From Candidatus Poribacteria bacterium (lineage in GTDB: Bacteria; Poribacteria; WGA-4E; WGA-3G), in NCBI GenBank assembly GCA_965242965.1, contig OZ251518.1:416001-480000 (forward strand): DNA of 64,000 nt. The letters are read 5' to 3'. Positions 655 through 62,860 of the stretch are shown here, one piece after another (position 1 is the stretch's first letter; every line of letters begins with the position of its first letter). A program made the translations under genes and the position numbers. The notes below the pieces were generated by a model. The model had not been told where the DNA came from and searched no databases. It saw nothing but the letters and a program-made list of their open reading frames with translations.

Positions 655-1045
655 GAGGGTGTTTCATAACTCCGTTTCGGTATTTATTCCATCTTGGGGG
701 CGGGCGAAAACTGAGCCCTCTTGGTAGGCGAGACCGGAAGGGTTCTCCTACCGGAAGGTGTCGGACCCACCTCTGTAGTTCGGGAGCGCGATGCGCCTGC
801 CTCAGCACAGATTGCGGAGGTTGATGTCGGGCCCACCTCTGTAGTTCGGGAGCGCCTGCTCCCGAACGGGTCAGGATCAGGCGATCCTGACCTACAGAGC
901 CTGGCGATCGCAGCATGGCGAGGGACAGGCCCTCGCCCTACGTGAAGGGACGGCGTTTTTTATCGTAGCGCGGGAGCCCTCGGATGCCACACGCGCATGG
1001 CGAGAGGGTCCCCCCCCGACGTTGAGCGATTTATGAAACACTATC
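655..1045. mobile_element. MITE-like element copy 1 (degenerate right TIR) with REP cargo
   Basis: GAGGGTGTTTCATAA at 655-669 and TTATGAAACACTATC at 1031-1045. Subterminal sequence is shared with other copies. No target duplication is visible. Confidence 0.7.
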
Positions 1046-1913: not shown

Positions 1914-3625
1914 CAGACACACTCCAATCCGAAATTCACGCTATTTTACAGGGCGCGATACGAGATGCTATTGCGGCGGGAGAACTCTCTATCGCTGAGG
2001 TGCCAGAAATCCTGTTTTCGCCGACGAAAACGCCGGAACACGGCGATTTTGCTACGCCGGTTGCGTTGGGGTTGGCGAAACAGGCAAAAATGCCGCCTCG
2101 CAAGATTGCCGAGACGATTGTCGCGCGCGTTAACGTGGCGGCGCATCCGCATATCCGCGAGATTGACATCGCCGGGCCGGGGTTTATTAACATCCATCTT
2201 TCGGATGCGTGGCTTTATGAGACGCTTCGCACGATTGTCGCCGAAGGAGATACTTACGGCACCTGCAGCGAAGGTGCCGGGCAGCGCGTCCAAGTTGAGT
2301 TTGTCAGCGCGAATCCAACGGGACCGCTGAATATTGTGAGCGGGCGCGCTGCCGCTGTAGGCGATACCCTCGTCAATCTGCTCAACGCTGTCGGCTACGA
2401 TGCCATCCGTGAGTTCTACGTCAACGATGCAGGTGGACAAGTGGAACGGCTCGGTGAATCGATAGACATCCGCTACCGGCAGGCGTTGGGGGAAACAGGA
2501 CTGGAAATTCCCGAAGGCGGTTACGAGGGCGAATACCTGCGGGATTTCGCGCAGGATGTCGTCAAGGCGGCGGGTGACACGCACCTGCAGCTTGAGACAA
2601 CCGAACGGGTATCCCTCTTCCGCGACAGGGGCATTGCGCACATCCGCGCGCAACAAGAGGCATCCTTGGAACGCTTCGGCGTTCAGTTTGATGTCTGGAC
2701 AAGCGAGAAGGCAATCCGCGCAAGTGGAAAACCGGCGGAGATTCTCCAACTCTTTCGCGACAAGCAGTATCTCTATGAAGCGGAAGACGCAACGTGGTTT
2801 CGGATGTCTGACTTCGGGGACGATAAGGATTGCGTTGTCATCCGTCGCGATGGGGAATGCACCTATTTCGTGCCGGACGCGGCTTATCATCGCGATAAGT
2901 TTGACCGGGGATTCAATAAAGTCATCAACTTTTTTGGGCCGGACCATCAGGGGCACGTCAGTCGTCTCTACAACTTCGTGAAGGCACTCGGTTTGCCGGA
3001 TGACTGGCTGGAGATTGCTATTATCCAACAGGTGAATCTCGTTGATGACGAGGGACAGCGGTTGGATATGTCAAAACGGCGCGGGAAGTTCTACACGCTA
3101 GATGTGCTACTTGACGAGCTCGCGGCGGCGATTGGGGAACGGTTCGCGGTGGATGTCGCGCGCTATTTCTACCTGATGCGCGCCAATAACACGCACCTTG
3201 ATTTCAATCTGGAGTTGGCGGTTAGAGAGGCGAATGAAAATCCTGTCTTCTACATTCAGTATGCCTTTGCGCGGTGCTGGAGTATTTTCCAAAAGACTGC
3301 CGAGCATGGGATTACGCCGCTGCCTATTGACAAGGTTTCTTTGGAGTTGCTGACAGAACCGATGGCGCATGCGTTAATTCGGAAGTTGTCGGAATTTCCG
3401 GCATTGGTGCTTTTCAGTGCGGAGTCGCGCGAGGTGCATCGCATCGCGCACTATTTGCATGAGTTGGCGGGGTTATTCCATCCCTACTATAATCAGCATC
3501 GGGTGCTGGATGCCGAGCATCAGGAACGGACGCAGGCGCGGCTTGTCTTGACGCAGGCGGTGCAGACGGTGTTGAAAAACGGGCTGGCATTGTTGGGGAT
3601 TTCCGCGCTGGAAAAACGGATGTAA
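1910..3625 (+). CDS. argS: Arginine--tRNA ligase
   Basis: HGDFATP, IAGPGFIN, VEFVSANPTGPL, MSKRRG, NPVFYIQYA and C-terminal LLGISALEKRM. ATG at 1910 overlaps the upstream stop (ATGA). Confidence 0.97.
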   Translation: MTDTLQSEIHAILQGAIRDAIAAGELSIAEVPEILFSPTKTPEHGDFATPVALGLAKQAKMPPRKIAETIVARVNVAAHPHIREIDIAGPGFINIHLSDAWLYETLRTIVAEGDTYGTCSEGAGQRVQVEFVSANPTGPLNIVSGRAAAVGDTLVNLLNAVGYDAIREFYVNDAGGQVERLGESIDIRYRQALGETGLEIPEGGYEGEYLRDFAQDVVKAAGDTHLQLETTERVSLFRDRGIAHIRAQQEASLERFGVQFDVWTSEKAIRASGKPAEILQLFRDKQYLYEAEDATWFRMSDFGDDKDCVVIRRDGECTYFVPDAAYHRDKFDRGFNKVINFFGPDHQGHVSRLYNFVKALGLPDDWLEIAIIQQVNLVDDEGQRLDMSKRRGKFYTLDVLLDELAAAIGERFAVDVARYFYLMRANNTHLDFNLELAVREANENPVFYIQYAFARCWSIFQKTAEHGITPLPIDKVSLELLTEPMAHALIRKLSEFPALVLFSAESREVHRIAHYLHELAGLFHPYYNQHRVLDAEHQERTQARLVLTQAVQTVLKNGLALLGISALEKRM

Positions 3626-3627
3626 GC

Positions 3628-4290
3628 TGTGGGGGGGCATAAATGGTTCAACGTCGCGGGGGACAGGCCCCCGCGCTACGGTTAAAAAAACGCCGCCCCA
3701 TCCCGTAGGGCTTGGGCCCTCGCATGCCATACGCGCATGCGAGAGGGTTTCCCTCGCCATGCGTTTTGGTGTCAGAGCGCCTCACCCCTGTAGTTCAGGA
3801 GCGCCTGCTCCTGACCCGTTCGGGAGCGGGCGCTCCCGAACTACAGAGGGGGAAACCCTCATCGTAACGATGGAGATCGCGGGGGACAGGCCCCCGCGCT
3901 ACGGTAGGTGGGGCGTGCGCTCATCACGTCTGTAGGTCAGGAGCGCCTGCTCCTGACCCGTTCGGGAGCGGGTGCTCCCGAACTACAGAGGGGGAAACCC
4001 TCATCGTAACGATGGAGATCGCGGGGGACAGGCCCCCGCGCTACGGTAGGTGGGGCGTGCGCTCATCACGTCTGTAGGCAGGAGCACCTGCTCCTGACCC
4101 GTTCGGGAGCGGGTGCTCCCGAACTACAGAAGGGGAAACCCTCATCGTGACGATGGCGATCGCGGGGGACAGGCCCCCGCGCTACGGTAGGTGGGGCGTG
4201 CGCTCATCACGTCTGTAGTTCAGGAGCGCCTGCTCCTGACCCGTTCGGGAGCAGGCGCTCCCGAACTACAGAAGGGGAAACACTCATCAT
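3628..4290. repeat. REP cluster with a ~142-bp unit repeated ~3.5 times
   Basis: Units start at about 3788, 3930, 4072 and 4213. Each has a B-type inverted REP pair (GTAG(T/G)TCAGGAGCGCCTGCTCCTGACC...GAACTAC) followed by an A-type REP (CGCGGGGGACAGGCCCCCGCGCTAC); the last unit is truncated. Confidence 0.92.
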
Positions 4291-7492: not shown

Positions 7493-7509
7493 AAAAAACG
7501 CCGTCATGT

Positions 7510-7960
7510 TACGTAGGGCGGGGGCCTGTCCCCCGCCATGCTGCGGTCTACCGGAAACTCGCGAGGGACAGGCCCTCGCGCTACGGAAAAAAACGCTGCT
7601 ACGTTACGTAGGGCGGGGGCCTGTCCCCCGCCATGCTGCGATCTCTAGGCTCTGTAGTTCGGGAGCAGGCGCTCCCGAACTACAGTGGGCCCGATGCGCG
7701 CCCCCCCAACGGGGATAAAGCATCCGAGCGGGTTTCCCTCGCCATGCAACGATCGCGAGGGACAGGCCCTCGCGCTACGGTGAAAAAACGCATCCCCGCC
7801 ATCGCGCGCGCCAGTTTCTGTAGTTCAGGAGCGCCTGATCCTGACCCGTTTGTGATCAGGCGATCACAAACTACAGAGTGGGCCCGATGCGCGCCAGGTT
7901 CTGTAGGTCAGGATCGCCTGATCCTGACCTATTCGGGAGCAGGTGCTCCCGAACTACAAA
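7510..7960. repeat. Mixed A- and B-type GTAG REP cluster
   Basis: Several GTAGGGCGGGGGCCTGTCCCCCGCC / CGCGAGGGACAGGCCCTCGCGCTAC pairs and GTAGTTC...GAACTAC units. Confidence 0.9.
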
Positions 7961-10319: not shown

Positions 10320-10492
10320 CGAGACCAGGAGGTCTCTCCTACTGTCTTTCAAGACTCCGGAATCCGTAGGGCGAGGGCCTGTCCCTCGCCACCTTGCAAG
10401 CCCCCGGGATCCGTAGGGCGAGGGCCTGTCCCTCGCCACCTTGCAAGCCCCCGGGATCCGTAGGGCGAGGGCCTGTCCCTCGCCACCTTGCA
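10320..10492. repeat. One C-type REP plus three 47-bp tandem A-type REP units
   Basis: GTAGGGCGAGGGCCTGTCCCTCGCCACCTTGCAAG starts at 10366, 10413 and 10460. Confidence 0.92.
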
Positions 10493-12199: not shown

Positions 12200-12480
12200 C
12201 CTCTGTAGTTCGGGAGCGCCCGATCTCGAACGGATCAGGATCTGGCGATCCTGATCTACAGAATCAGCGTGGCGATCGAACGATGGCGAGGGACAGGCCC
12301 TCGCCCTACGTGAATGGGCGGCGTTTTTTTCATCGTAGCGCGGGGGCCCTCGCATGCCATACGCGCATGCGAGCGGGTTTCCCCCGCGATCGTTGCATGG
12401 CGAGGGACAGGCCCTCGCCCTACGGTAAGCAGCACGTTTTCCCTCATCCCGCGATCGTTGCACGGCGAGGGACAGGTTTT
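12200..12480. repeat. REP cluster between convergent-stranded ends of two minus-strand genes
   Basis: One B-type pair, A-type REPs and a loop-expanded A-type REP at about 12335-12390. Confidence 0.88.
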
Positions 12481-20521: not shown

Positions 20522-20700
20522 ACCGTAGGGCGAGGGCCTGTCCCTCGCCATCCAGCGATGCCTCGTGAGTTCTACCGTAGGGCGAGGGCCTGTCCCTCGC
20601 CATGCAACGATCGCGGGGGACAGGCCCCCGCGCTACGGTGAAAACAGAGCCGCCCGCGCAGCCCGTAGGGCGAGGGCCTGTCCCTCGCCATGCAACGATC
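20522..20700. repeat. A-type REP cluster
   Basis: Three GTAGGGCGAGGGCCTGTCCCTCGCC copies and one inverted CGCGGGGGACAGGCCCCCGCGCTAC. Confidence 0.9.
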
Positions 20701-20729
20701 GCCAAAAACCGCAAACTGGAGAACCATTC

Positions 20730-33919: not shown

Positions 33920-34336
33920 CGAGACGCGGGAGGGCGCGCCGTTTCTTTTTCCGGCGCGCGATACCCCGGCGAGGGACAGGCCCTCGCCCTACGATGAGGG
34001 GCATTTTTTACCGTAGCGCGGGGGCCTGTCCCCCGCACGCGTCTCAATTACCGTAGCGCGGGGGCCTGTCCCCCGCGATCTCTACGGTAGACCGCAGCAT
34101 GGCGAGGGACAGGCCCTCGCCCTACGGTAAGGGGAGGCGTTTTTTCACCGTAGCGCGGGGGCCTGTCCCCCGCGATCTCTACGGTAGATCGCAGCATGGC
34201 GAGGGACAGGCCCTCGCCCTACGATGAGGGGCCGTTTTGTGAAGAAGATGGCCCGCCTACCGTAGCGCGGGGGCCTGTCCCCCGCGATCTCTACGCGCGC
34301 GATACCCCGGCGAGGGACAGGCCCTCGCCCTACGGT
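33920..34336. repeat. A-type REP cluster
   Basis: Alternating GTAGCGCGGGGGCCTGTCCCCCGCG and GGCGAGGGACAGGCCCTCGCCCTAC units. Confidence 0.92.
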
Positions 34337-36607: not shown

Positions 36608-37228
36608 CCGTAGGGCGGGGGCCTGTCTCTCGCCGTGTCTGTATTGCGGGGTCGGAGCAGACTCCCGATTCCCGTAGGGCGGGGGCCTGTCCCCCGCCAT
36701 GCCCGGGATAATCGAGCACTCGCGAGGGACAGGCCCTCGCGCTACGGTGAGCGGGAAAACGCTACGGGGATCGAGAGATCGCGAGGGACAGGCCCTCGCG
36801 CTACGGTTATTCGGAGCGGGCTCCTCATTAACCGTAGGGCGGGGGCCTGTCCCCCGCCGTGCCCGTGTCGCGATGAAAGTTCGCGAGGGACAGGCCCTCG
36901 CGCTACGGTGAGCGGGAAAACGCTACGGGGATCGAGAGATCGCGAGGGACAGGCCCTCGCGCTACGGTTGTCGGAGCAGGCTCCTCTTATCGTAGGGCGG
37001 GGGCCTGTCCCCCGCCGTGCCTGTGTTGCGCGGAACGTTCGCGAGGGACAGGCCCTCGCGCTACGATAAAACGGGGCGTTTTGTGTTCCACCGAGCGTTC
37101 GCGAGGGACAGGCCCTCGCGCTACGGTTGTCGGAGCGGGCTCCTCATTAACCGTAGGGCGGGGGCCTGTCCCCCGCCGTGCCCGTGGTAGGCGAGAAATC
37201 GCGAGGGACAGGCCCTCGCCCTACGGTT
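36608..37228. repeat. Large A-type REP cluster (BIME-like)
   Basis: About 12 units of GTAGGGCGGGGGCCTGTCCCCCGCC and CGCGAGGGACAGGCCCTCGCGCTAC with repeated linkers. Confidence 0.92.
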
Positions 37229-37373: not shown

Positions 37374-37911
37374 ATGCCAGACGTGAACTCTCAACCCGTT
37401 TTTCTCATTGCGGATACCCACATCCGCCCGAATAACGCGATTGCAACGACGTGCCAGCCACCCCGGCTGCGCGCCGTGTCTCCATTTGCGCGTCCAGTTG
37501 ATGACACCGCACTAAACATAAGTTCGATTTACCCCCCCCCGTCCTAAATGCCCGTTAACCTTTGACGTTATCGGCAGGAAGGCGGTTCAAGGGGATGTCT
37601 CTCATCTGAATCCCAACCCAAAATCCGCGTGCTTTGCACGCGCCTATGTTCTTTTGCCTCGTGGCACGCGCTCGCCTTCGCGAGTCCGCGCCTGCCACGG
37701 GGCTTTTCGCGTTGCATCGCCCGATGCAGCACCGATGTCTACCAGCGTTGTTCCGGGGAAAATTCACTCCCCACTTTGGGTATTAAGGGGCAGGATAACC
37801 GTGGGCACCCGCCCACGGTTATCTTGTTTTCTCCGAGACACGCGCGCCTTTCGCCTACCGAGGCGGGAGTCCCCTATTCATTTCATTTCTATAACTCTTG
37901 GAGGCATTTGA
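37374..37911 (+). other. Leader ORF split by a frameshift at a C9 tract
   Basis: One frame is open 37374-37547. A second frame is open 37522-37911. They overlap only around C9 at 37532-37540. Confidence 0.5.
37791..37832 (+). terminator. Terminator-like hairpin inside the leader
   Basis: CAGGATAACCGTGGGC-ACCC-GCCCACGGTTATCTTG (16-bp stem, one G-U) followed by TTTTCT. Confidence 0.55.
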
Positions 37912-40900
37912 ATGACAAGCAAATCGCTTTTTTCCTTAAGTTTACTGCTGCTTGCCACCCTAGCGGTTTCCCTCGGAACAGGGACGGAAGCGCAGGCACA
38001 AACTTACACAATTAACGCCGTTAGAATTTATGTGAACCCTGACATGGTAGACCCTAGTGAGGATGGCATGCCCGTTGAGTTTGCCGACGCGCGGACGAGT
38101 CCCATTGGCGGCAAACTGCCGAAGGTTGCCAATTCCTCTGTCGGGACGTTGAGCACCGAGGGAGGTGGTGTTGAAATCACCGCAACAAACGCGCACGATA
38201 GCACAACTCCCTATACCGCGAACGCGGGAGACATCATCGCCATTGCCTTTCAGGTAACCGCGACAGGGGGTTCGGTCCTTCACGGCTCAGTCATCTCTCT
38301 CGCTGGTTGGGAGACGGGCGGCCCACGGGGGATGGTTGGCGTATATACAAAACCCCTGTACCCGAGCCGCTTGATAGAAGGAAGTGGCGGTTCGGCTGTG
38401 ACTGTCCCCTCGCCCTACAACTTTACCGTGGTATACGCCTACCCGGTGAGGTCTGACGACATGGACGCGGATGGCGATTGGCTGTTCCATCGTTCTGGTA
38501 ACAGGCCTTTCCACCGCTGGACTGGAGCGTTAAACGCGACTTATTCCGCCCCTATCACTGTCCGCTATCCCAGGATAGATGGTAGCGTTTCGACGATTCC
38601 GACGGTGACGCGCCTGACGATAAACAGGCCGCCCGCCGGGCAGTCAGGACGCTCCCGCTATTACAAAGTCCGCCAAGAGTGTTTGGATCATCAACGAAAA
38701 TACGCGGCTGTCTACACGAATGCTTGTGAATTAGTGCAGGACCACGGCTGGGCTCTTCCCAACGATCCGACTCATCCGGTAACGCTGGCCAATAGCCTGC
38801 CGACTGCCTTTTTCAAAGCCGGCGACACGATAGAATTTCAGTTGCAGTTTAGCGAAGAGGTGATTGTGACAGGGGCTCCAATCCTAGAGCTCATGCTTGA
38901 TGGGGGCACCGGACGGATGCACTACGTACCCGCCGGGAGTGGAGCAACGACACTTACCTTCCGATACACAGTGCAACAAGGCGATACGGCTTTCGGTGGC
39001 ATCGCGGCTTGGAATGCCTGGGGTAACATCAGGGATGGCAATAGCATCGAAGATATATCAGGGCATAAAGTTAATAGCGTTACCCGGGACGTTGAATCGG
39101 CGATTCGGGCATTTTTTGCCGGTCAAGAGGGCATCAGGGCGGAGGAGGCTCATCCCTGGTTAGACCCGCCAGGTGCCCACTGGAAAAAGTATGCCACCGG
39201 TATCGCTGAATACCTTGTGGATACTGTCCCGCCGACGGTGTGGATTCCCGGCTTGATAAAGAATGGGGAGACACACACCGACGATAGACGGAATACGTTT
39301 GTGAGTGTGGAACCGACTTATCTTGCTGTCCCTACATTTACGGAGGCAGATCTCCGAGCGGTTGTTACGGAAAGTGAATCACAGACAGATGCCTTTGATG
39401 TGGAATTCCGCTTTTTTAATTGGGACGGTGGGGCACTAGCCGACGAAGTGGGGATTAGTTTTACCGGCGATGATGTGGAGATCACGGGGGCGAATGTGGA
39501 GCGAGCCGATTGGGCAGTTGAAACTACCTATATCGGATTAGACCATCGTGCTACCAATCAGTGGCCGCCTACCGACAGAGCGGGGCAGCCAGCGGGTTCA
39601 GCCCATAAGCCAGGGCATGCCAAGAACTCCGCGTCGTTCCTCGTCTACAAGGCGACAATTCGTCCGGCCCTGGGTTTTCAGGGCAACGTGTCCATCAGTT
39701 TGCCGGCGGGTGCTACTCAAGATATCGCCGGCAACGACAGTTATGCCTCAAATACGTTGACAGTGCCCGTGAACAATCCATTGCGCGTGGTGGAAAAGCC
39801 GGAGATTGTCGTGCCTCCCGCCGGTGTCCATACTGCCGGGGATAAGATTGAAGTGGAAGTGACGTATGACAAGGAGAATCTCCGCTATGAAGGCGAGAAC
39901 CCGCCGTATGTGACGCTTTATCTCGGCGAAGAAGTGCCGGCAAATGCAAGGCATGCAACATGGCAACGCGCCGAAGACGCAAATTCCACGAAAGTGACGT
40001 TTGCGTATACGGTGGCAGCAACGGACACGGTGGCAGAGGCAGTGCGTGTCCCTTCCGTCAAGATAATGGTTCCTGAAGAGACGAGTTTGCTTTCTGGTTC
40101 CCTCGGTGCGTCGGCTGAGCGGCAGTCTGGAACAGAGGAGCGTGCGGCGGCATCTGGTGCTGCGCCAACAACGGTGCCGACGGTAGAGCCGTCGCCGTTG
40201 GAAGATACGTCTGGACGTGAGATTGCCCCGGTAGTTTCGGAGACACCGGTGGTGCCGGTGATTTACCTTCCGGAAACGTCAGATCCGAAGGCGGTTGCAT
40301 CGGCTGTGCCTCGCAAGCCCATCGTTTTCAACGAACTCGGCAACGGCAGCGGCGATGCTGATGACTGGCTGGAACTTCGCAATGTCACCGGTGATGCAGT
40401 CTCGTTAAAAGACTGGGAGCTCAGCATCGTGCAGGATGGCAAGAAGGAAGATACCTCCCTGATTGCTTTTGTAGAAGATGTGAGTGTGCCGGCGAATGGG
40501 CTGTTGTTGCTCGTGAATACGTCACCGGACAAAACGTCTCTCGCCGGTGGGGATAACGTGGAGACTGCCGAGGTCGAGACAAAAGGTTCTTCGCACCAGT
40601 ATCTTGTCAAATCGGAGTTGTCCCTACCAGATGATGGCAAGTTCCTCTTGATTCTCCGGAACGCGAAGGATAAACGCGGCTTGAACGAGGCGTTCGTGGA
40701 TGTCGCCGGTGGCGGCGGCAGTGACACGGATGCGTTTGTCCGCGAGCAGACAGGCGATTATGATACGCATGTCTGGCCCTTGCAAGTGTTGCAGGCACCG
40801 GGTGGTGACACTGAAGATGCCCTCGGCTCAGGCAAAGTCTGGCAGCGCGCCAAGGCGGACATTGTGGGATACCACAAAGATGCCTGGGCAGAATCGGCGT

Positions 40901-41994
40901 TCACCGGTATCGGTTACGATAGGAAGGTGACAGAGTCTCCTGCCACTTCCGGCACGCCGGGATATCCGAATGGTGCTGTCAAAACGGAAGCTGCCACGCC
41001 GAAGGGAAGTGTCACGCTCAGCGAAATCATGTTTGATTCTGCAGGTGGCACATTGCCGCAGTGGATCGAACTCTACAACAATTCCAAAACGGATGCAATC
41101 AATCTCAACCGCTGGAGGTTGGAGATTCAGAACGTCGACTCCGAGGATTTAGTCGGCCGCCCGATTGTCACGTTGACGTTAGGAGAAAAAGTGATTCAAC
41201 CGAATCAAACGTTGCTCATCGTCGCAGGTCCGGCGCGTGCGTCATCGGATTCGTATCTGCCGGCGGATAGAGTTTACGATCTGCTTGCACTGCATGAGAA
41301 GAATCTGCGTATCAAGCGTGCGCGGGATACGTTCTTGAGTACCGAGGGGTTCTACTTGCAACTCTCCGATAGAAACGGGAATCTGGTAGACGAAGTCGGG
41401 AATAGGGACAGCGACAGGCGTTCGGATGATGCGCCGGCATGGGCATTACCGCTGAGTTTTGAGGAAGGTTCGCGGAGTTCTGTCATTCGGCGTTACGATA
41501 AAGGGGTTGCGCTGCCGGGACGAAAGCGTGCGAGTTGGGTGTTGGCATCGCGCATCAAGCCGTTTGATGAGTCTCTCCATTACGGCCATGCTGAGGACAT
41601 CGGCACACCGGGGCATCGCGAAGGTGGTGCATTGCCGGTGGAGTTATCCAGTTTCTCGATGACGCGTAATGAAACAGGTGCTGTTGTCTTGACATGGACA
41701 ACCGAATCTGAGGTAGATAACGCCGGTTTCAATCTGCGTCGCAGTGAAAAGCGCGCGAGCGGTTTCACGCTCTTGAATCCTGCCTTAATCGCCGGTGCCG
41801 GCACGACGGGTGAACGTCAAACTTACACGTTTACCGACACATCGGCGAAGCCGGGAATTGAGTATTACTATCAGATCGAGGAAGTTGCGTTTGATGGGAA
41901 GCCGGAGACGTTAGTGACGCGGTTGTTGCCGGGTCCTGTTTCTGCATCTAATCGGATGCTGACGACATTCGGCGAAGTCAAGCAGCAGGAGTAA
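37912..41994 (+). CDS. Large secreted/surface protein with Ig-like repeats and two lamin-tail-like domains
   Basis: Signal peptide; FKAGDTI..FSEEV.VTGAP.L...GSG.TTLTFRYTV; IVFNEL..DWLELRN; LSEIMF..QWIELYN; GTPG; LPVELSSF...WTTESEVDNAGFN; C-terminal MLTTFGEVK. Confidence 0.82.
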   Translation: MTSKSLFSLSLLLLATLAVSLGTGTEAQAQTYTINAVRIYVNPDMVDPSEDGMPVEFADARTSPIGGKLPKVANSSVGTLSTEGGGVEITATNAHDSTTPYTANAGDIIAIAFQVTATGGSVLHGSVISLAGWETGGPRGMVGVYTKPLYPSRLIEGSGGSAVTVPSPYNFTVVYAYPVRSDDMDADGDWLFHRSGNRPFHRWTGALNATYSAPITVRYPRIDGSVSTIPTVTRLTINRPPAGQSGRSRYYKVRQECLDHQRKYAAVYTNACELVQDHGWALPNDPTHPVTLANSLPTAFFKAGDTIEFQLQFSEEVIVTGAPILELMLDGGTGRMHYVPAGSGATTLTFRYTVQQGDTAFGGIAAWNAWGNIRDGNSIEDISGHKVNSVTRDVESAIRAFFAGQEGIRAEEAHPWLDPPGAHWKKYATGIAEYLVDTVPPTVWIPGLIKNGETHTDDRRNTFVSVEPTYLAVPTFTEADLRAVVTESESQTDAFDVEFRFFNWDGGALADEVGISFTGDDVEITGANVERADWAVETTYIGLDHRATNQWPPTDRAGQPAGSAHKPGHAKNSASFLVYKATIRPALGFQGNVSISLPAGATQDIAGNDSYASNTLTVPVNNPLRVVEKPEIVVPPAGVHTAGDKIEVEVTYDKENLRYEGENPPYVTLYLGEEVPANARHATWQRAEDANSTKVTFAYTVAATDTVAEAVRVPSVKIMVPEETSLLSGSLGASAERQSGTEERAAASGAAPTTVPTVEPSPLEDTSGREIAPVVSETPVVPVIYLPETSDPKAVASAVPRKPIVFNELGNGSGDADDWLELRNVTGDAVSLKDWELSIVQDGKKEDTSLIAFVEDVSVPANGLLLLVNTSPDKTSLAGGDNVETAEVETKGSSHQYLVKSELSLPDDGKFLLILRNAKDKRGLNEAFVDVAGGGGSDTDAFVREQTGDYDTHVWPLQVLQAPGGDTEDALGSGKVWQRAKADIVGYHKDAWAESAFTGIGYDRKVTESPATSGTPGYPNGAVKTEAATPKGSVTLSEIMFDSAGGTLPQWIELYNNSKTDAINLNRWRLEIQNVDSEDLVGRPIVTLTLGEKVIQPNQTLLIVAGPARASSDSYLPADRVYDLLALHEKNLRIKRARDTFLSTEGFYLQLSDRNGNLVDEVGNRDSDRRSDDAPAWALPLSFEEGSRSSVIRRYDKGVALPGRKRASWVLASRIKPFDESLHYGHAEDIGTPGHREGGALPVELSSFSMTRNETGAVVLTWTTESEVDNAGFNLRRSEKRASGFTLLNPALIAGAGTTGERQTYTFTDTSAKPGIEYYYQIEEVAFDGKPETLVTRLLPGPVSASNRMLTTFGEVKQQE

Positions 41995-42392
41995 ACGCAA
42001 TATCACCGTAGCGCGGGGGCCTGTCCCCCGCGATGCCTCTAACTGTCTGAATCAGGATTTTCGGGATTTTAGGATTTTCAGGATTATCTCCCTCGCGGCG
42101 GTGAAACCTCTGTTGAAAAGGACAGCACAGAGCCTACGGACCTAAAACTCCATTTTCCAGCAGTGCCGCATCGGTTGGAGACCAGGGTCCCTAATCTTGC
42201 TAATCGTGATAATCTTGTAAATCCTGCTTCAGACGATTGGCACGGCGAGGGACAGGCCCTCGCCCTACGGTAAAACGGGCCGTTCTGGATACCGTAGCGC
42301 GGGGGCCTGTCCCCCGCGATCGCCTGATAGACCGCAGCATGGCGAGGGACAGGCCCTCGCCCTACGATAAAACAAACCATACTGAATCCATC

Positions 42393-50122: not shown

Positions 50123-50340
50123 TAGCATCGAGACCAGGAGGTCTCTCCTACCTCCGTAGGGCGAGGGCCTGTCCCTCGCCGAGGGCTCTCTTACCACCGT
50201 AGGGCGAGGGCCTGTCCCTCGCCATGCTTCGGTCTACCGGAAACTCGCGGGGGAAACCCTCTCGGATGCGCGTGTGGCATCCGAGGGCCCCCGCGCTACG
50301 GTACTTTGACATTTTCTTGCCAGGTCTCTCCTACGGGGAG
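50123..50340. repeat. A- and C-type REP cluster
   Basis: ATCGAGACCAGGAGGTCTCTCCTAC, two GTAGGGCGAGGGCCTGTCCCTCGCC copies and a loop-expanded REP. Confidence 0.88.
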
Positions 50341-54741: not shown

Positions 54742-55770
54742 ATGATGAAATTTCAACAATGGACAGCGATGGCACTCTTCTCTATCTCACTGCTTCTCGT
54801 CGTCTCTTGTGAGAAGGAGCCGGGAAATTGGACAGCAGTCCACCGAGAGGGAGCGTCTATTTACGGCGTGTGGCGAAGTCCGACAAAAGCCGCGGCCACT
54901 TTGGCAGTTGCGGAGGTGAACCGTAATCTCCTTGACAAGGGTGCGCAGGGGTCGGATTTGCCTATCTTTACGACGTTGGCCCCGATAGAACTCTTACCTG
55001 TTCAAGTCGTCGCCGGGCGCAACGTTTCTCAGGCGGAATGGGTGCAGGCGCGTGTGCCATCGACTTATCAAGGCAAAACCCTCTATCGCGATAGGCCCGC
55101 GGCACCGGACCTTTACCACGCTTACGGTTTTCAGCAGCAGGCGGAGGTGGAATACCAGAGTCGGAAATTCGGTTCAGAGCCGCTCATCTTGCTTGAAATT
55201 TTTGATATGGGCACCGCGGAGAATGCGTTCGGAATTTACAGTTTCAACACATATCCTCGGGCCGAGATGGTCTGGGTGGGAAGCAAGGCACTGCTTTCCG
55301 GTGGCTATCTCCGTTTTGCTAAAGGGAAGTATTTCGTTGAGATAGAGGGTTATGAATTCGCTACCGGCATTCGCGAAGGCATCGTCGCGCTGGCGAAGGC
55401 GATTTCTGCGCAGATTCAAGAGCCGCCGACAAAGGTCCCCCTGTTTGCGATGCTGCCGCATGCCAACCGAATCGGCGGAAGTGACAAATTATTCCGCTCA
55501 CATTGGACGCTGAGCCAAATCTACAGCGGGTTACCGCTAAGCCTCCCGCAGTTGACAGGATTTCCCCTCTGTGTCTCCGCAAGTTATCGCGATAACGATG
55601 CAGATGATTGGGTGAATGCGCGGGTTGTGTTTATCCTCCGGTTCCCTGATGCCGCCACTGCCGAGGCGGCTTGGACGCGCTATCGTGAAGAGGTGACGAA
55701 AGCATCCCCTGCCTTTGAAATGGGGGCAAATGGGGAGATTTTGGTTGATGAACAACTACCTTCGGAGTAA
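54742..55770 (+). CDS. Putative lipoprotein (DUF6599-like)
   Basis: Lipobox VVSC, YG F, LEIFDMGT.ENAFGIYS and F.KGKYFV.I. Confidence 0.65.
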   Translation: MMKFQQWTAMALFSISLLLVVSCEKEPGNWTAVHREGASIYGVWRSPTKAAATLAVAEVNRNLLDKGAQGSDLPIFTTLAPIELLPVQVVAGRNVSQAEWVQARVPSTYQGKTLYRDRPAAPDLYHAYGFQQQAEVEYQSRKFGSEPLILLEIFDMGTAENAFGIYSFNTYPRAEMVWVGSKALLSGGYLRFAKGKYFVEIEGYEFATGIREGIVALAKAISAQIQEPPTKVPLFAMLPHANRIGGSDKLFRSHWTLSQIYSGLPLSLPQLTGFPLCVSASYRDNDADDWVNARVVFILRFPDAATAEAAWTRYREEVTKASPAFEMGANGEILVDEQLPSE

Positions 55771-55819
55771 AAACTGATGCACTACCTTTCTGAAATGACC
55801 CCCCCCTGATCTGGCCCGG

Positions 55820-57208
55820 ATGCTTATTCGTGGGGATAACTTAATTGAGATGCGGAAGATACCGGATAACGTCGTCGCTCTCATCGCGACGGATCCGCCG
55901 TTCAATTCTAAACGCGACTATTTCGTGCCGTATCGCGATGAACACGGAAAAGAGCCTGACACCCTCGTCAAAGCGTTCACCGATACATGGAAATGGGGCG
56001 ACGCGGCCGAGGCAACGTGCGATGAACTTATTCGCGACATCGGCGGCGCGATAGGCGAGACGATTGAGGGGTTACGACTCTTTTTGAAGCAAACGCCGAT
56101 GATGGCGTATTTGGTGATGATGGGAGTTCGGCTAGTGGAGATGCACCGGATTCTGAAACCGACGGGTTCAATTTATCTCCACTGCGATGCGACTGCGTCG
56201 CACTATCTGAAAATTTTGATGGATGCCGTTTTCGGCGCGAAAAATTTCATGAACGAACTCGTTTGGTGTTATTCCTGGCCCCGGAATTCCAAGCGATATT
56301 ACGCGCGAACGCACGATAGTATTCTTTTTTACACCCTCGGCGACAAATGGACATTCAACGCCGATGCAATACGTCAACCTTACGCGGCGGCATCGGAAGG
56401 CAGAGATGCCTATGCTGCCAATGCATCGCAGTTTGGGGATGCTGTTGTGCTGGATAAGCGCGGGAAACTCCCGCAAGACTGGATAATTCTGCCGCCTGTC
56501 CGTCCGAATGCGAATGAACGTGCAGGTTATCCGACGCAGAAGCCGATAGCCCTCTACAAACGCATCATCCAAGCCTCTAGCAACGAAGGCGATTTGGTGC
56601 TAGATCCGTTCTGTGGTTGCGGCACGACACTCCTTGCGGCGGAGGCACTCAATCGGCGATGGCTCGGCATTGATTTGACATACCTCGCCACGGGAGCCGT
56701 CACACTGCAGATGGAGAAATTCTTCCCGCAGGTGAAGGACAGCATCGTTATCACCGGCACGCCAGAAAACGTAGACACTGCGCTGCAACTTGCCCGCGAA
56801 GACCCGGGTGGGTTTGAGGAGTGGTGTGTGACGCATGTGCTAAAGTTTACCTCAAACGCCAAAAAGGTAGGCGATGGCGGCATTGATGGCACATATCGGT
56901 TTCCTATCGGCAAGGTAAAGGGACGCACGGCTTATGGAAAGATGGTTGCACAGGTGAAAGGTGGGAAGTATAGCCTCGGGCATATCCGTGATTTTCGGAC
57001 AGCGATGACGAATGCACAAGCGGATTTGGGCATCTTTGTCGTGACGCGGCCCCCGAGCGCCGGAATGCGCGCGGAGGCGAGTCGTGCAGGGATGTGGAAA
57101 CATCCGCTGTGGGATATGACATGTCCACGCGTGCAACTTTATGAGATTCAAGATTATTTTGATGGCACCCTGCCGAAGATACCTGTGGGAGAACGGCGGG
57201 TGCTGTGA
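55820..57208 (+). CDS. Beta-class N4/N6 DNA methyltransferase fused to an Mrr-like nuclease domain, copy 1
   Basis: GDNL, ATDPPFNS, GYPTQKP, VLDPFCGCGTT and a C-terminal FEEW...GDGGIDG...QVKGG. The likely true start at 55777 is out of frame at a C8 tract. Confidence 0.88.
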   Translation: MLIRGDNLIEMRKIPDNVVALIATDPPFNSKRDYFVPYRDEHGKEPDTLVKAFTDTWKWGDAAEATCDELIRDIGGAIGETIEGLRLFLKQTPMMAYLVMMGVRLVEMHRILKPTGSIYLHCDATASHYLKILMDAVFGAKNFMNELVWCYSWPRNSKRYYARTHDSILFYTLGDKWTFNADAIRQPYAAASEGRDAYAANASQFGDAVVLDKRGKLPQDWIILPPVRPNANERAGYPTQKPIALYKRIIQASSNEGDLVLDPFCGCGTTLLAAEALNRRWLGIDLTYLATGAVTLQMEKFFPQVKDSIVITGTPENVDTALQLAREDPGGFEEWCVTHVLKFTSNAKKVGDGGIDGTYRFPIGKVKGRTAYGKMVAQVKGGKYSLGHIRDFRTAMTNAQADLGIFVVTRPPSAGMRAEASRAGMWKHPLWDMTCPRVQLYEIQDYFDGTLPKIPVGERRVL

Positions 57209-57282
57209 TACCGCTTCTTTCTCGTAGGACGACGGCCGTTACGCCGATGCCTTTGAAATGGCAGCAAATGGGGAAATTTTTG

Positions 57283-57311
57283 TTGACAAACACCTGACTT
57301 TAAAGTAGAAT
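57283..57311 (+). promoter_or_regulatory. Promoter upstream of methyltransferase copy 2
   Basis: TTGACA-N17-TAGAAT. Confidence 0.65.
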
Positions 57312-57418
57312 TACGCTGGCAGTTCTGCGAGTCTATCCATGCTAAAATTACCGAAACAATCGGAGTGAAAGTTGATGCACTACGTCTTTGAAATGACCCC
57401 CCCCCTGATCTGGCCCGG

Positions 57419-58861
57419 ATGCTTATTCGTGGGGATAACTTAATTGAGATGCGGAAGATACCGGATAACGTCGTCGCTCTCATCGCGACGGATCCGCCGT
57501 TCAATTCCAAACGCGACTATTTCGTGCCGTATCGCGATGAACACGGAAAAGAGCCTGACACCCTCGTCAAGGCGTTCACCGATACATGGAAATGGGGCGA
57601 CGCGGCCGAGGCGGCATGCGATGAACTCATCCTTGAAGTTGGTGGACAGATAGGTGAGACGATTGAGGGGTTACGACTCTTTTTGAAGCAGACTCCGATG
57701 ATGGCGTATTTGGTGATGATGGGGGTGCGGCTGGTGGAGATGCACCGGATTCTGAAGCCGACAGGTTCGCTGTATCTCCACTGTGATTCGGCCGCCAGTC
57801 ACTACCTAAAACTCCTCTTGGATGCTGTGTTTGGACATGCGAACTACCGTAACGAAATCATCTGGCGGAAGTATGCGGGACGCAAGAACAACGCCAAGCA
57901 TAAATTCGCCACGCAAACTGACACAATCCTGTTTTATGCCAAAAGCAAAAATGCCGTTTTCAATCCGCTGTTTGAGCCAATTTCAGACAAGGAGATTGAG
58001 AAAAAATATCGTTACACCGACGATGATGGAAGGCGGTACCGTTTGAGTTGGGGCCGGCATTATCAGATGACAGGTGAACAGCGGCGTATCTATCTGGACA
58101 AACAACCCGGTGCTGCTATCGGCTCTTTGTGGGCGGAAGATGGATTGCAGCTGAATACCTCTACAAGAGAACGCGCGGGGTATCCGACGCAGAAGCCGAT
58201 AGCCCTCTACAAGCGCATCATCCAAGCCTCCAGCAACGAAGGCGATCTGGTGTTAGATCCGTTCTGTGGTTGCGGCACGACACTTCTCGCTGCGGAGGCA
58301 CTCAATCGGCGATGGCTTGGCATCGATTTGACGTATCTTGCCACGGGAGCCGTCACACTGCAGATGGAGAAATTCTTTCCGCAGGTGAAAGACAGTATTG
58401 TTATCACCGGCACGCCGGAAAACGTAGAAACCGCGCTGCACCTTGCACGCGAAGACCCGGGTGGATTTGAGGAGTGGTGTGTCACGCATGTGCTGAAGTT
58501 TACCTCAAACGCCAAAAAGGTGGGCGATGGCGGCATTGATGGCACCTATCGGTTTCCCATCGGCAAGGTGAAGGGACGCACGGCTTATGGAAAGATGGTT
58601 GCACAAGTGAAAGGTGGGAAATATAGCCTGGGGCATATCCGTGATTTCCGGACGGCGATGACGAATGCGCAGGCGGATTTAGGTATCTTTGTCGTGGCGC
58701 GGCCGCCGAGTGATGGAATGCGCGCCGAGGCGAGTCGTGCAGGGATGTGGAAACATCCACTGTGGGACATGACATGTCCACGCGTGCAGCTTTATGAGAT
58801 TCAGGATTATTTTGATGGCACCATGCCGAAGATACCTGTTGGGGAGCGGCGGGTGCTGTGA
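57419..58861 (+). CDS. Beta-class N4/N6 DNA methyltransferase-Mrr fusion, copy 2 (different central region)
   Basis: Near-identical to copy 1 except about 57770-58175. The likely true start at 57375 is out of frame at a C9 tract. Confidence 0.88.
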   Translation: MLIRGDNLIEMRKIPDNVVALIATDPPFNSKRDYFVPYRDEHGKEPDTLVKAFTDTWKWGDAAEAACDELILEVGGQIGETIEGLRLFLKQTPMMAYLVMMGVRLVEMHRILKPTGSLYLHCDSAASHYLKLLLDAVFGHANYRNEIIWRKYAGRKNNAKHKFATQTDTILFYAKSKNAVFNPLFEPISDKEIEKKYRYTDDDGRRYRLSWGRHYQMTGEQRRIYLDKQPGAAIGSLWAEDGLQLNTSTRERAGYPTQKPIALYKRIIQASSNEGDLVLDPFCGCGTTLLAAEALNRRWLGIDLTYLATGAVTLQMEKFFPQVKDSIVITGTPENVETALHLAREDPGGFEEWCVTHVLKFTSNAKKVGDGGIDGTYRFPIGKVKGRTAYGKMVAQVKGGKYSLGHIRDFRTAMTNAQADLGIFVVARPPSDGMRAEASRAGMWKHPLWDMTCPRVQLYEIQDYFDGTMPKIPVGERRVL

Positions 58862-58882: not shown

Positions 58883-59000
58883 CATCGCGGGGGACAGGCC
58901 CCCGCGCTACGGTGAAAATGAGATTGACATCGCGGGGGACAGGCCCCCGCGCTACGGTGAAAATGAGATTGACATCGCGGGGGACAGGCCCCCGCGCTAC
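58883..59000. repeat. 45-bp tandem A-type REP units (about 2.6 copies)
   Basis: ATCGCGGGGGACAGGCCCCCGCGCTACGGTGAAAATGAGATTGAC repeated. Confidence 0.9.
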
Positions 59001-59802: not shown

Positions 59803-60786
59803 ATGGATACCAAATGCACACAAAACTTGTCTGCTGTTACGGCGGCGTTGGATGATGTGTATCCATCTGCTGCGTCTCTAGTGGAAAAGGTGATGGCGGA
59901 TGCGCAGGCGTTGCAAGCGGCCGGCGAGACAGCGGCGGCGATTGAGAAGTGGCGTTCGCTTGCAATTCTGGTAGAAGGAGTGGCGGATGCGTTAGCGGCG
60001 CATGCATGGTTTCAGGTAGGTTCACTGCTTTCCGATGCTGGCAAACATGCCGAGGCGGTGGTGGCTTACGATAACGTTATTCGGCTGCGTTCCGATTGCG
60101 GCGAGGCGTATCTCCAGCGTGGCAAGGCAAGAAATGGGTTAGAGCAGTATGAGGCTGCCTTGGTGGACTTGGAGAGGGCCCTGTGTTTGCAGCCCGATGT
60201 TGCGGCGATTTATTCGGCGCGCGGGGTTGCCAAATCCGGTCTCGGGGAGCACGATGCTGCCATGGCAGAGCACGCGAAGGCGTTGCAGTTAACGCCGCGG
60301 TGTGCGTCGGTGTATGCGAACCGCGGCGTGTCAAACATGTATCGCGAGGAAAACGAGGCGGCGGTTGCGGATTTCGACGAGGCGATTCGTTTGGATGCGA
60401 CGCTGTCCGAGGTTTATCATCTCCGCGGGTATGTGAAGTTCTTCCTGAGTCAAGATGAGTCAGCTGTTGCCGATTATGACGAGGCGATTCGTCTCAATCC
60501 CAGGAATGCAGCGAGTTACACGAATCGCGGCTTGATAAAAAAATCGTTGGGACAGCGCAAGGCAGCGTTCGCAGACTACGAGGCGGCAATCCGTGTCGCA
60601 CCAAACTACGCGCAGCCGTATACCTACCGGGCCGAGGAAAACCTCTACTGGGGACATGAGGCAGCGGCGCGCGCGGATTTGGAAATTGCGATGGAACTGG
60701 CACGTGCAGCGGGTGATGAAGCCCATCAGGTTTATGTCACCTATCGGCTTGAGGAACTTGACGAAGCGGAGGAGGCCAACGACTGA
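59803..60786 (+). CDS. TPR-repeat protein, copy 1
   Basis: AAIEKWRSLA N-terminal motif and repeated AY.NRG...A.ADYDEAIRLNP. Confidence 0.88.
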   Translation: MDTKCTQNLSAVTAALDDVYPSAASLVEKVMADAQALQAAGETAAAIEKWRSLAILVEGVADALAAHAWFQVGSLLSDAGKHAEAVVAYDNVIRLRSDCGEAYLQRGKARNGLEQYEAALVDLERALCLQPDVAAIYSARGVAKSGLGEHDAAMAEHAKALQLTPRCASVYANRGVSNMYREENEAAVADFDEAIRLDATLSEVYHLRGYVKFFLSQDESAVADYDEAIRLNPRNAASYTNRGLIKKSLGQRKAAFADYEAAIRVAPNYAQPYTYRAEENLYWGHEAAARADLEIAMELARAAGDEAHQVYVTYRLEELDEAEEAND

Positions 60787-61286
60787 TGCCTGATTTTTCC
60801 AAATTCAAAAAAGTTGAACCTCGTGACATCTGGTTTCGGGAGGCACAAGACTTTACACCCTGGCTCGCCGAGAATTTGTCATGCCTCTCTGAGTCCTTGA
60901 ACCTAGAGTTGGCCTTTGAGGCGCGTGAGCAACGGGTTGGCGACTTCCGGGCAGACCTGGTGTGTCGGAACGTGATGGATAACTCCCGCGTGGTGATTGA
61001 AAACCAGTTGACGCGGTCAGACCATTCGCACCTCGGCCAAGTCCTGACATACGCAGCCGGGCTCCAAGCCATTACCGTGATTTGGGTAGCTGTAAAATTC
61101 CGGCGTGAGCATCGGGCAACGCTGGATTGGCATAATGAGATAACGGCGGAACGTTTTCGGTTTTTCGGGGTGGAACTCTATACATGGGAAAATCAGACTT
61201 CACGCTATGTAGAGTTTGCTATTGTCTCCAAACCAGAAGGTTGGATGCAGTCGGAAGGCTCTTGCCGGTACCTCATTCCGGAATAA
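60786..61286 (+). CDS. PD-(D/E)xK-like nuclease domain (N-terminal domain of DUF4268-type proteins), copy 1
   Basis: RDIW..EAQDFTPWLAENL, E.RVGDFRADL, VVIENQL..SDH.HLGQVLTYAAG. TGATG overlap with the TPR gene. Confidence 0.75.
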   Translation: MPDFSKFKKVEPRDIWFREAQDFTPWLAENLSCLSESLNLELAFEAREQRVGDFRADLVCRNVMDNSRVVIENQLTRSDHSHLGQVLTYAAGLQAITVIWVAVKFRREHRATLDWHNEITAERFRFFGVELYTWENQTSRYVEFAIVSKPEGWMQSEGSCRYLIPE

Positions 61287-61361
61287 GGGGAGTGGACAGA
61301 AAAGTCCTGTGCAGACAAAGCTTCCGCGTAGCTGGCACTTAATGTCTATAGGAATAAAACC

Positions 61362-62360
61362 ATGGCAACGAAATCGATAGCACTTCACACGGAACAGCAT
61401 ACGCGAACCGTCGCGGCGGCATTGGGGGATGTGTCTCCATCATCCACATCATTGGTGGAGAAAGCGATGTCGGATGCGCAGGCGTTGCAAGCAGCCGGCG
61501 AGACAGCAGCGGCGATTGAGAAGTGGCGTTCGCTTGCGATTCTGGTGGAAGAGGTGGCGGATGCGTTAGCGGCGCATGCATGGTTTCAGGCCGGTTCACT
61601 ACTTTTGGAATCCGGTGATGCCGCTGCTGCAATTGCCGCTTACGACAACGCGATTCGGTTGCAGCCGGCGTGCGCAGCAGCCTATCTCCACCGCGGTCAG
61701 GCGAAAAATGCATTGGCGCGATATGATTCGGCATTAGCCGATTTAGACAAGGCACTCTGTTTGGATTCAGGGATTGCCGCGGCTTATTCCGCTCGGGGCG
61801 TTGCGCGTTCTGGGCTCGGACAGCACGAAGCCGCCCTTGCCGAGCACGAGGTTGCCTTCCAGTTAACGCCGCAGTGCGCGGAGGCCTATACGAATCGCGG
61901 TTTGTCGAAAATGCTGCAAGGCGAAGATGAGGCGGCTCTCGCTGACTTTGACGAAGCGATTCGTCTCAATCCGGAGATGTCAAAAGTCTATCATTATCGA
62001 GGTGGGTTGAAGTTCTTCCTGAGTCAACGCAAATCCGCAATCTCTGATTATGATGAGGCGATTCGGCTCAATCCCAGGAATGCAGCGAGTTATACGAATC
62101 GCGGACTCATAAAAAAATCGTTGGGACAGCGCAAGGCAGCGTTAGCAGACTACGAGGCGGCAATCCGTGTCGCACCAAACTACGCGCAGTCGTATACCTA
62201 CCGGGCCGAGGAAAACCTCTACTGGGGACATGAGGCGGCGGCGCGCGCGGATTTGGAAATTGCGATGAAACTGGCCCGTGCAGCAGGTGATGAAGCCCAT
62301 CAGGTTTATGTCGCCTATCGGCTTGAGGAACTTGACGAAACGGCGGAGGCCAACGACTGA
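61362..62360 (+). CDS. TPR-repeat protein, copy 2
   Basis: Paralogue of 59803-60786 with near-identical termini. Confidence 0.88.
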   Translation: MATKSIALHTEQHTRTVAAALGDVSPSSTSLVEKAMSDAQALQAAGETAAAIEKWRSLAILVEEVADALAAHAWFQAGSLLLESGDAAAAIAAYDNAIRLQPACAAAYLHRGQAKNALARYDSALADLDKALCLDSGIAAAYSARGVARSGLGQHEAALAEHEVAFQLTPQCAEAYTNRGLSKMLQGEDEAALADFDEAIRLNPEMSKVYHYRGGLKFFLSQRKSAISDYDEAIRLNPRNAASYTNRGLIKKSLGQRKAALADYEAAIRVAPNYAQSYTYRAEENLYWGHEAAARADLEIAMKLARAAGDEAHQVYVAYRLEELDETAEAND

Positions 62361-62860
62361 TGCTTGATTTTGACTCACTCAAAAAAGTTGAACCTCGTGA
62401 CATCTGGTTTCGGGAGGCACAAGACTTTACCCCCTGGCTCGCCGAAAATTTGTCATGCCTCTCCGAGTCCTTGAACCTAGAGTTGGCCTTTGAGGCGCGT
62501 GAGCAACGGGTCGGCGACTTCCGGGCAGACCTGGTGTGTAGGAACGTGGCGGATAACTCCCGCGTGGTGATTGAAAACCAGTTGACGAAGTCCGACCATG
62601 GGCACCTCGGCCAAGTCCTGACATATGCAGCCGGGATACCGGCTCTTACCGTCATTTGGGTGGCTACAGAATTCCGGCGTGAACATCGGGCAACGCTGGA
62701 TTGGCAAAACGAAATAACGGAGAAACGGTTCAGTTTTTTCGGCGTGGAACTTCAGACTTGGAGAGACTGGGCATTGCGTTATCGGGTAGAATTTTCTACT
62801 ATCGCCAAACCCCTGGGCTGGACGCAGTCGGAAGATCGGCTACTCTATCAAATTCGGTGA
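62360..62860 (+). CDS. PD-(D/E)xK-like nuclease domain, copy 2
   Basis: Paralogue of 60786-61286, also 166 aa, with a TGATG overlap. Confidence 0.75.
   Translation: MLDFDSLKKVEPRDIWFREAQDFTPWLAENLSCLSESLNLELAFEAREQRVGDFRADLVCRNVADNSRVVIENQLTKSDHGHLGQVLTYAAGIPALTVIWVATEFRREHRATLDWQNEITEKRFSFFGVELQTWRDWALRYRVEFSTIAKPLGWTQSEDRLLYQIR

Follow-up and report, generated by a model that had tools for sequence, protein, structure and literature searches.

It is well established that simple sequence repeats can switch DNA methyltransferases (MTases) of Type III, Type I and Type IIG. Here we analyse a pair of tandem genes for beta-class MTases with a C-terminal Mrr-like domain, each with its own poly-C tract near the 5' end, found at 55764-58861 in a 64,000-nucleotide stretch of DNA from Candidatus Poribacteria, a sponge symbiont (contig OZ251518.1, positions 416,001 to 480,000, assembly GCA_965242965.1). 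This whole stretch is called the window, and its own coordinates are used throughout. Our favoured reading, to which we give about an even chance, is that slipped-strand changes in tract length control two MTase specificities, either on/off or high/low, so that the locus is a candidate switch. We compare it with the described systems and with three other ways of explaining the tracts.

In Helicobacter pylori JHP1272, a poly-C tract encoding PPPP acts as an on/off switch of the enzyme, and variation is deemed likely for repeats of more than 8 bp (PMC3936762). JHP1272 and HP1353-HP1354 resemble the window genes in two respects, namely that a coding C run read as poly-Pro frameshifts an MTase-containing single chain, and that the MTase and a nuclease-type domain are in one polypeptide (PMC3936762). 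The Helicobacter enzymes belong, however, to the MmeI family of Type IIG (PMC3936762), whereas the window proteins, of about 470 aa, combine a beta-class PF01555 domain with the C-terminal Mrr-like one. Also unlike Helicobacter, the window has its tracts 22 nt after the start, in two tandem paralogues with a tract each, and in an uncultured sponge symbiont. In the Type IIG/IIC architecture an N-terminal nuclease is followed by a gamma-class MTase and then by a target-recognition domain (TRD); the window MTases differ from it in being beta-class and in having the nuclease-like domain at the C-terminus.

Type III mod genes such as modA and modH are similar to the window genes in that a simple repeat controls a beta-class N6-adenine MTase, in that conserved 5' and 3' regions enclose a variable central TRD, and in that several switches occur per genome, those of the window being candidates (PMC5909438). 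Mononucleotide G[n] tracts are present in modH, modJ and modL of H. pylori, and repeat-bearing mod genes have already been reported in environmental species (PMC5909438). Unlike Type III mod, the window MTases have no adjacent res gene and carry the Mrr-like domain. The DCM8/DAM3 fusion of Metamycoplasma hominis is likewise a Type II-class MTase with a beta-group N6_N4 module whose full length depends on repeat number, and its (TA)n repeat led the authors to postulate in 2023 the first Type II MTase with phase variants (PMC10305163). That repeat is a dinucleotide in the TRD of the second MTase module and truncates the protein, whereas the window has a 5' mononucleotide tract that would gate the whole protein; intra-strain length variation was demonstrated there by Sanger sequencing, while the window lengths are compared between copies and species only (PMC10305163). 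Finally, the Type IIG enzyme cj0031 of Campylobacter jejuni is, like the window candidates, a single-chain restriction-modification enzyme, in its case phase-variable and altering site-specific methylation, but it differs from them in enzyme class and host (PMC4889913).

In the open-access literature searched, we found no paper on this kind of switching in Poribacteria or in the MTase/Mrr-like family, none on phase variation by a simple sequence repeat in sponge symbionts like this one, and none on the fusion family itself. The mechanism and its logic are already known; the novelty lies in the enzyme family, in the phylum, and in two tandem copies with different TRDs and a possible fail-safe start. 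An earlier note on this DNA had presented the switching as undescribed for an MTase-Mrr fusion. That holds for the fusion as far as this literature goes, but homopolymer switching of MTases, including by poly-C, was on record before (PMC3936762, PMC5909438). The fusion itself also turns out not to be rare, as it has at least 8000 homologues, and most of the 120 listed combine PF01555 with PF22722 and/or PF04471. The host-associated setting in which the note placed such systems does fit a sponge symbiont.

The elements at the 5' ends of the two genes are the following.

55764-55767, + strand: GGAG of copy 1, Shine-Dalgarno-like, 9 nt before ATG 55777
55777-55809, + strand: ancestral start and N-terminal leader of copy 1 (ATG 55777-55779, TGA 55807-55809)
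55799-55806, + strand: homopolymeric C8 tract in copy 1 (C7 or C10 would restore the frame)
55820-57208, + strand: body of MTase copy 1 with a type A TRD, 462 aa if read from ATG 55820
57362-57365, + strand: GGAG of copy 2, Shine-Dalgarno-like, 9 nt before ATG 57375
57375-57443, + strand: ancestral start and leader of copy 2 (ATG 57375-57377), a 22-codon open reading frame (ORF) overlapping ATG 57419
57397-57405, + strand: homopolymeric C9 tract in copy 2 (C7 or C10 would restore the frame)
57419-58861, + strand: body of MTase copy 2 with a type B TRD, 480 aa if read from ATG 57419, domain architecture as in copy 1

In both copies seven codons separate the upstream ATG from the tract, which lies at a distance of 22 nt from the start codon; in the window assembly neither tract is in frame with its upstream ATG. 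The GGAG of copy 1 overlaps the DUF6599 gene that precedes it, at its 3' end (stop codon 55768-55770), and the copy 1 leader is now a 10-codon mini-ORF, MHYLSEMTPP, that ends at TGA 55807, directly 3' of the C8 (CCC TGA) and 10 nt before ATG 55820. The copy 2 leader translates as MHYVFEMTPPLIWPGCLFVGIT, with 12 sense codons past the last CCC before TAA 57441-57443, and ends 22 nt past ATG 57419. From the tract on, the MTase frame gives PPPDLARMLIRGDNL... in both copies or, taken further, PPPDLARMLIRGDNLIEMRK..., so that a C7 or C10 would connect the upstream ATG with the gene body. Past the tract, this frame first meets an ATG at 55820 in copy 1 (an ORF of 462 aa ending at 57208) and at 57419 in copy 2 (an ORF of 480 aa ending at 58861), and neither ATG is preceded by a Shine-Dalgarno motif. 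In both genes, the simple repeat is thus located where gain or loss of a unit changes the reading frame of the MTase. All the elements that the earlier note had listed (GGAG, ATG, C8 and C9, stops) are present, and its statements that C7 or C10 restores the frame and that each copy is one slip from it proved correct.

The upstream ATG can be judged from the protein relatives. Most of them begin MHxNRTLIRGDNL, a subfamily begins MHY...NR[TA]L[IV]RGDNL, and those that are naturally in frame read MH..E.PP(P)..NR.L[IV]RGDNL. The relative P0004, MHSLFEVPPPLLNRALVRGDNL, has 476 aa (15 + 461) and TRD type A, is 89% identical to copy 1, and is in frame through PPP; P0013, MHYLHELPPLLNRALVRGDNL, has 493 aa (14 + 479) and TRD type B, and is in frame through PP. 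These two sequences show that ATG 55777 and ATG 57375 are the ancestral starts and that the C run encodes Thr-Pro-Pro(-Pro), which agrees with the earlier note. The block N-R-T/A-L just before RGDN is at least 90% conserved among 160 aligned homologues, and both window copies keep its Arg codon (CGG), in the MTase frame, upstream of the downstream ATG. In the AlphaFold2 (AF2) model of P0004, residues 1-10, which contain the PPP, have a predicted local distance difference test (pLDDT) score below 50. The prolines are therefore in a tail modelled as disordered, which should tolerate one Pro more or less.

The tracts were compared with a set of 79 related loci from a genome scan. One of these, L016 (PYJE01000097, isolate AGPOR5, 90% identical), is a syntenic locus in another Poribacteria metagenome-assembled genome, with the order LptE-like, DUF6599, two methyltransferases, amidohydrolase. 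Its copy 1 has ATG 2401 and a C9 at 2423-2431, and its copy 2 has ATG 3954 and a C10 at 3976-3985; both are out of frame with these ATGs and would be in frame at 8 or 11. In copy 2 there is no ATG near the tract, and the first in-frame one, 4028, would delete the invariant RGDN block. In copy 1 we observe a second ATG, 2414, in another frame and without a Shine-Dalgarno motif. The C9 is in frame with it, and this state corresponds to a P0012-type N-terminus, MSLPPPDW. With two pre-tract ATGs in different frames, this copy has a long ORF in two of the three tract phases.

In the four copies of the two genomes, the tract is a pure, homologous homopolymer with lengths of 8, 9, 9 and 10. The motif GGAG-N9-ATGCACTAC is invariant in all four. 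The codons that flank the tract have diverged, as has the sequence directly past it (TGATCTGG, GACTGGAA, TACCCAAA), but the tract itself is still pure. This alignment of orthologue 5' ends, which the earlier note had suggested, thus finds leader, GGAG spacing and C tract all kept. Among the 79 loci, L016 is the only one with a G or C run of at least 8 at the 5' end of the homologue; the other 78 have none. As judged from this set, the poly-C tract appears to be clade-specific.

Neither base composition nor codon usage accounts for the tracts. Under an independent-base model the + strand of the window should have 0.83 C runs of 8 or more and 2.4 such G runs, whereas it has four of the former (at 1010, 37532, 55799 and 57397) and none of the latter. 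The C tracts exceed what composition would give, the two MTase tracts being homologous through tandem duplication and therefore of one origin rather than two independent events. Of the Pro codons in 30 long intact window ORFs, 21% are CCC, and CCC-CCC is used in 0 of 35 Pro-Pro dicodons.

Several other C runs were observed. The C8 at 1010-1017 (+ strand) is intergenic, 93 nt upstream of an RraA-like gene (1110-1913) and beside a dispersed REP-like (repetitive extragenic palindromic) repeat. The C9 at 37532-37540 (+ strand) is also intergenic, in an 840-nt gap before the gene of a 1360-aa Lamin-tail-domain protein (37912-41994), and has no paralogue in the window by blastn. Kinship of these two runs with the MTase leader was considered and rejected, as blastn of the three regions against the window gave none. 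In the AGPOR5 genome, a further locus (L010) has a C9 at 3252-3260, about 750 nt upstream of a more distant MTase homologue, in a TTTAC9 context like that of window 37526-37540 and of L016 copy 1. Two distant homologues, from Anaerolineae and Chloroflexia, have a C7 run at 75-80 nt from the start of the gene (L064 335-341 and L074 4075-4081); the position of these runs is roughly that of the DPPF motif, which GAC CCC CCC TTC may encode there.

The gene bodies are open over 461 or 479 codons in all four copies. By the Nei-Gojobori method, dN/dS is 0.085 (dS 0.71) between window copy 1 and L016 copy 2, and 0.087 (dS 0.67) between window copy 2 and L016 copy 1. These are live genes under purifying selection and not decaying pseudogenes, and they have been translated through most of the window-L016 divergence. 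At least three four-fold-degenerate third positions of the tract are C in all four copies, which is unlikely without selection or repeated homogenisation; a rough estimate from the tree length puts the probability of this at about 0.02.

The two copies differ mainly in the centre of the protein, and the features concerned are listed here together with two from the region between the genes.

56234-56515, + strand: variable central target-recognition region of copy 1, type A (alignment columns 137-252)
57833-58168, + strand: variable central target-recognition region of copy 2, type B (alignment columns 137-252)
57248-57286, + strand: non-coding remnant of the DUF6599 3' end, 90% identical over 39 nt to 55710-55748
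57283-57311, + strand: TTGACA-17-TAGAAT before copy 2, promoter-like in agreeing with 11 of the 12 consensus positions, a consensus match only

In the central region dN is about 0.9 between types A and B and 0.045 between the window type A and the L016 type A copy. The flanks have a dN of 0.01-0.05 within a genome, with 0.01 for the C-terminal part between the window copies. Conserved 5' and 3' regions thus enclose a variable central TRD, and relatives of 456-493 aa share these flanks. Since the copies differ in the target-recognition region, they should methylate two different motifs, that is, have two methylation specificities. The order of the TRDs is A-B in the window (55820-58861) and B-A in L016 (2414-5386), and the flanks carry genome-specific residues that are common to both copies of a genome. 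The swapped order together with flanks homogenised per genome indicates probable gene conversion or exchange of TRD cassettes between the tandem slots. The DUF6599 remnant of about 40 nt was carried along by the tandem duplication, and it contains the promoter-like site of copy 2; such sites number 2 in the region against 2.7 expected in shuffles. An RNA element around the start was also considered and rejected: RNAalifold on three copies gave a small helix without convincing covariation, and the one Rfam match was far below its gathering score (19.7 vs 50 bits, E 0.96).

In the mechanism that we favour, translation would start at the GGAG-led ATG (55777 or 57375) and proceed through seven codons into the poly-C, read as Thr-Pro-Pro(-Pro). 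Slipped-strand mispairing at the C8 and C9 would alter the tract length, and the full-length protein would be made only at C7 or C10, which places both copies out of frame in this assembly. Each gene would then switch one specificity stochastically and reversibly, so that a population could show as many as four states. Out-of-frame states might still yield low amounts of a shortened enzyme by re-initiation at Met 55820 or 57419, and such a leaky downstream start would turn a clean OFF state into a dimmer. Slippage within a population, the effect at the protein level, the specificities, and a downstream regulon or restriction role are all things that we infer. A phasevarion (a switch-controlled regulon) and independently switching methylomes, both put forward in the earlier note, we likewise only infer. 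A switchable single-chain restriction barrier may be at work just as well as a regulon.

Several observations weigh against this switch. None of the four DNA copies is in frame, the first copy being at +1 and the second at +2 in both genomes. The eight sequences that are at least 95% identical to either window copy (the two copies themselves, P0003 and P0005-P0009) all start at MLIRGDNL, and no in-frame long form is found among them; P0003 and P0005-P0009 represent six clusters with 80 member sequences in all. Given random states and independent samples, eight short forms out of eight would have a probability of about 0.04. The short form is also close to the family norm, as most members have 5-6 residues before LIRGDNL. 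The missing Shine-Dalgarno motif before 55820 and 57419, in which the earlier note saw a sign that these are not the starts, is confirmed but is weak evidence, because a Shine-Dalgarno-like motif is found in 16 of the 30 long ORFs of the window and lacking in the other 14.

These observations lead to the rival that survives best, a fixed frameshift with a new start, although we regard it as unlikely. Both enzymes would be made constitutively from ATG 55820 and 57419, shortened by 14-15 residues, the leader being a relic or a coupling mini-ORF, and tract length would have little or only a modulating effect. The eight short forms fit an OFF-biased switch and, equally, such a fixed frameshift. 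The Met just after the tract is lineage-specific, present in the two window copies, P0003 and P0005-P0009 but replaced by Ala in L016, P0004, P0012 and P0013; P0024, however, has a Met at this position in an in-frame long form. In copy 1 the mini-ORF stop is 10 nt before ATG 55820, a geometry compatible with termination-re-initiation, whereas in copy 2 the mini-ORF ends 22 nt past the ATG. While only MHxNRT precedes LIRGDNL in most of the family, the short form loses the Arg of the conserved NR[TA]L block. The absence of a Shine-Dalgarno motif, weak as it is, also counts against a start at 55820 or 57419. Further evidence against the fixed frameshift comes from the four-copy comparison, where GGAG-N9-ATG-CAC-TAC and a pure C tract are kept at dS 0.4-1.0, and where L016 copy 2, although out of frame and lacking an ATG close to the tract, is intact and constrained. 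It is important to point out that the switch and the fixed start can be combined, as the downstream ATG may give constitutive or leaky expression, and the tract would then act as a volume control with high, low and off settings.

Another possibility is recoding without a change in the DNA, in which a ribosomal frameshift or RNA polymerase slippage on the C run would provide a constitutive, low level of full-length enzyme. Contexts of the CCC TGA type are prone to +1 shifts. The copy 1 tract meets its stop in just this way, and homopolymers allow re-pairing of the Pro tRNA and of the nascent RNA. The shifts needed are, however, +1 at CCC-TGA in copy 1 and -1 on the C9 in copy 2, and over the four copies they differ (the +1 state twice, the +2 state twice). 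The post-tract sequence varies (TGATCT, GACTGG, TACCCA), only one of the four copies has a stop right after its tract, and no stimulatory RNA structure stands out, with folding z-scores of -0.07 to +0.68 versus shuffles in the four copies. Altogether, we consider recoding improbable.

A homopolymer miscall, with true tracts in frame (C7 or C10) and ordinary constitutive MTases, is very improbable: although a long-read consensus has its greatest difficulty with runs of at least 8, L016, assembled independently from another species, has both copies out of frame, the six further near-identical representatives are called from the downstream Met where random miscalls would leave many long forms, and the tract would stay a slippage-prone repeat even if miscalled. 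The earlier note had argued against such an error from the absence of other frameshifted genes; eleven runs of 7, all A or T and all inside intact window ORFs, agree with it, but the argument is only weakly informative, because apart from the two MTase tracts no run of 8 or more is present in coding sequence of the window, which therefore has no control for errors at long runs.

We now consider the enzymes that the switch would control. In copy 1 the N6_N4_Mtase domain spans residues 19-286 and an Mrr_cat/NA-iREase1-like domain residues 327-441, so both copies have MTase and nuclease-like domains in one polypeptide. In Pfam, PF01555 (N6_N4_Mtase) matches the two proteins with E 1e-45 and 1e-44, and the C-terminal domain matches NA-iREase1 at about 1e-07 (1.5e-07) and Mrr_cat at about 1e-05 (2e-05). 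A sequence search of the PDB gives the beta-class enzymes M.RsrI (2e-20), M.BceJIV, M.MboIIA and CcrM as the closest solved relatives (E 2e-20 to 5e-14). They have the MTase fold and motif order in common with the window proteins, and the matches do not cover the Mrr-like domain; EcoP15I Mod is weakly similar in sequence (3.7e-08). With the AF2 model of P0004 (mean pLDDT 77), Foldseek finds the same beta-class enzymes, with E 1.5e-17 to 5e-16 and a TM-score of at most 0.79 on the target.

Both copies have the motifs DPPF and FCGCG, and DPPF (motif IV) precedes FCGCG (motif I), which is the beta-class order. N6-adenine methylation is predicted from the DPPF and from the name that one source gives to P0065. 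In the C-terminal domain, residues E347, D370, Q392 and K394 (P0004 numbering) are invariant in an alignment of 81 sequences, so a PD-(D/E)xK-type site may be intact; the best Pfam match of this domain, NA-iREase1, is a family named as inactive. No restriction gene (res, helicase-nuclease) adjoins the MTases in the window or at the syntenic L016 locus. In the window they are preceded by pnp, an LptE-like gene and DUF6599, and followed by genes for an amidohydrolase and a TPR protein.

Some further repeats were observed in the surroundings. Between the copy 2 stop and the amidohydrolase gene there is a perfect 45-nt tandem repeat of 2.6 copies (58883-59000), whose unit holds a variant of the REP-like palindromic repeat of the window. 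This short GC-rich repeat, of the GGGACAGGCCCTCGCCCTAC type, has dozens of intergenic copies, often in small arrays, for example at 918-942, 7493-7643, 10365-10485, 12270-12476, 20524-20704, 34012-34334, 36609-37225, 42244-42366 and 50155-50300. Just downstream, 59803-62860 is a second apparent tandem duplication, with ORFs of 327 and 332 aa that are each followed by a 166-aa ORF (60786-61286 and 62360-62860); the 327-aa ORF (59803-60786) is a TPR protein by Pfam.

Taken together with the exchange of recognition domains, the switch suggests a wider reading, which we offer tentatively and consider possible but rather doubtful. A clade of Poribacteria would have a two-switch, four-state methylation system, maybe also a self-contained restriction barrier, built from tandem beta-class MTase/Mrr-like fusions with a poly-C tract each, whose TRD cassettes are exchanged and whose downstream Met provides a third, low-expression state. 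If this is true, a repeat-switched system would be described for the first time both in this widespread fusion family and in this phylum, and bet-hedging of the phasevarion type would extend from small-genome pathogens to a large-genome, uncultured mutualist of an animal microbiome.

The consequences for the organism and the enzyme family can be stated for each part of the proposal. If the downstream Met is the real start, the locus would show a contingency switch that is being retired. The two TRD types would add two new specificities to a very large (at least 8000 homologues) and uncharacterised fusion family. If the tracts slip in vivo, sponge symbionts would share the logic of contingency loci with human pathogens, and their methylomes, or their barriers to phage and other foreign DNA, would be diversified in dense, phage-rich host tissue.

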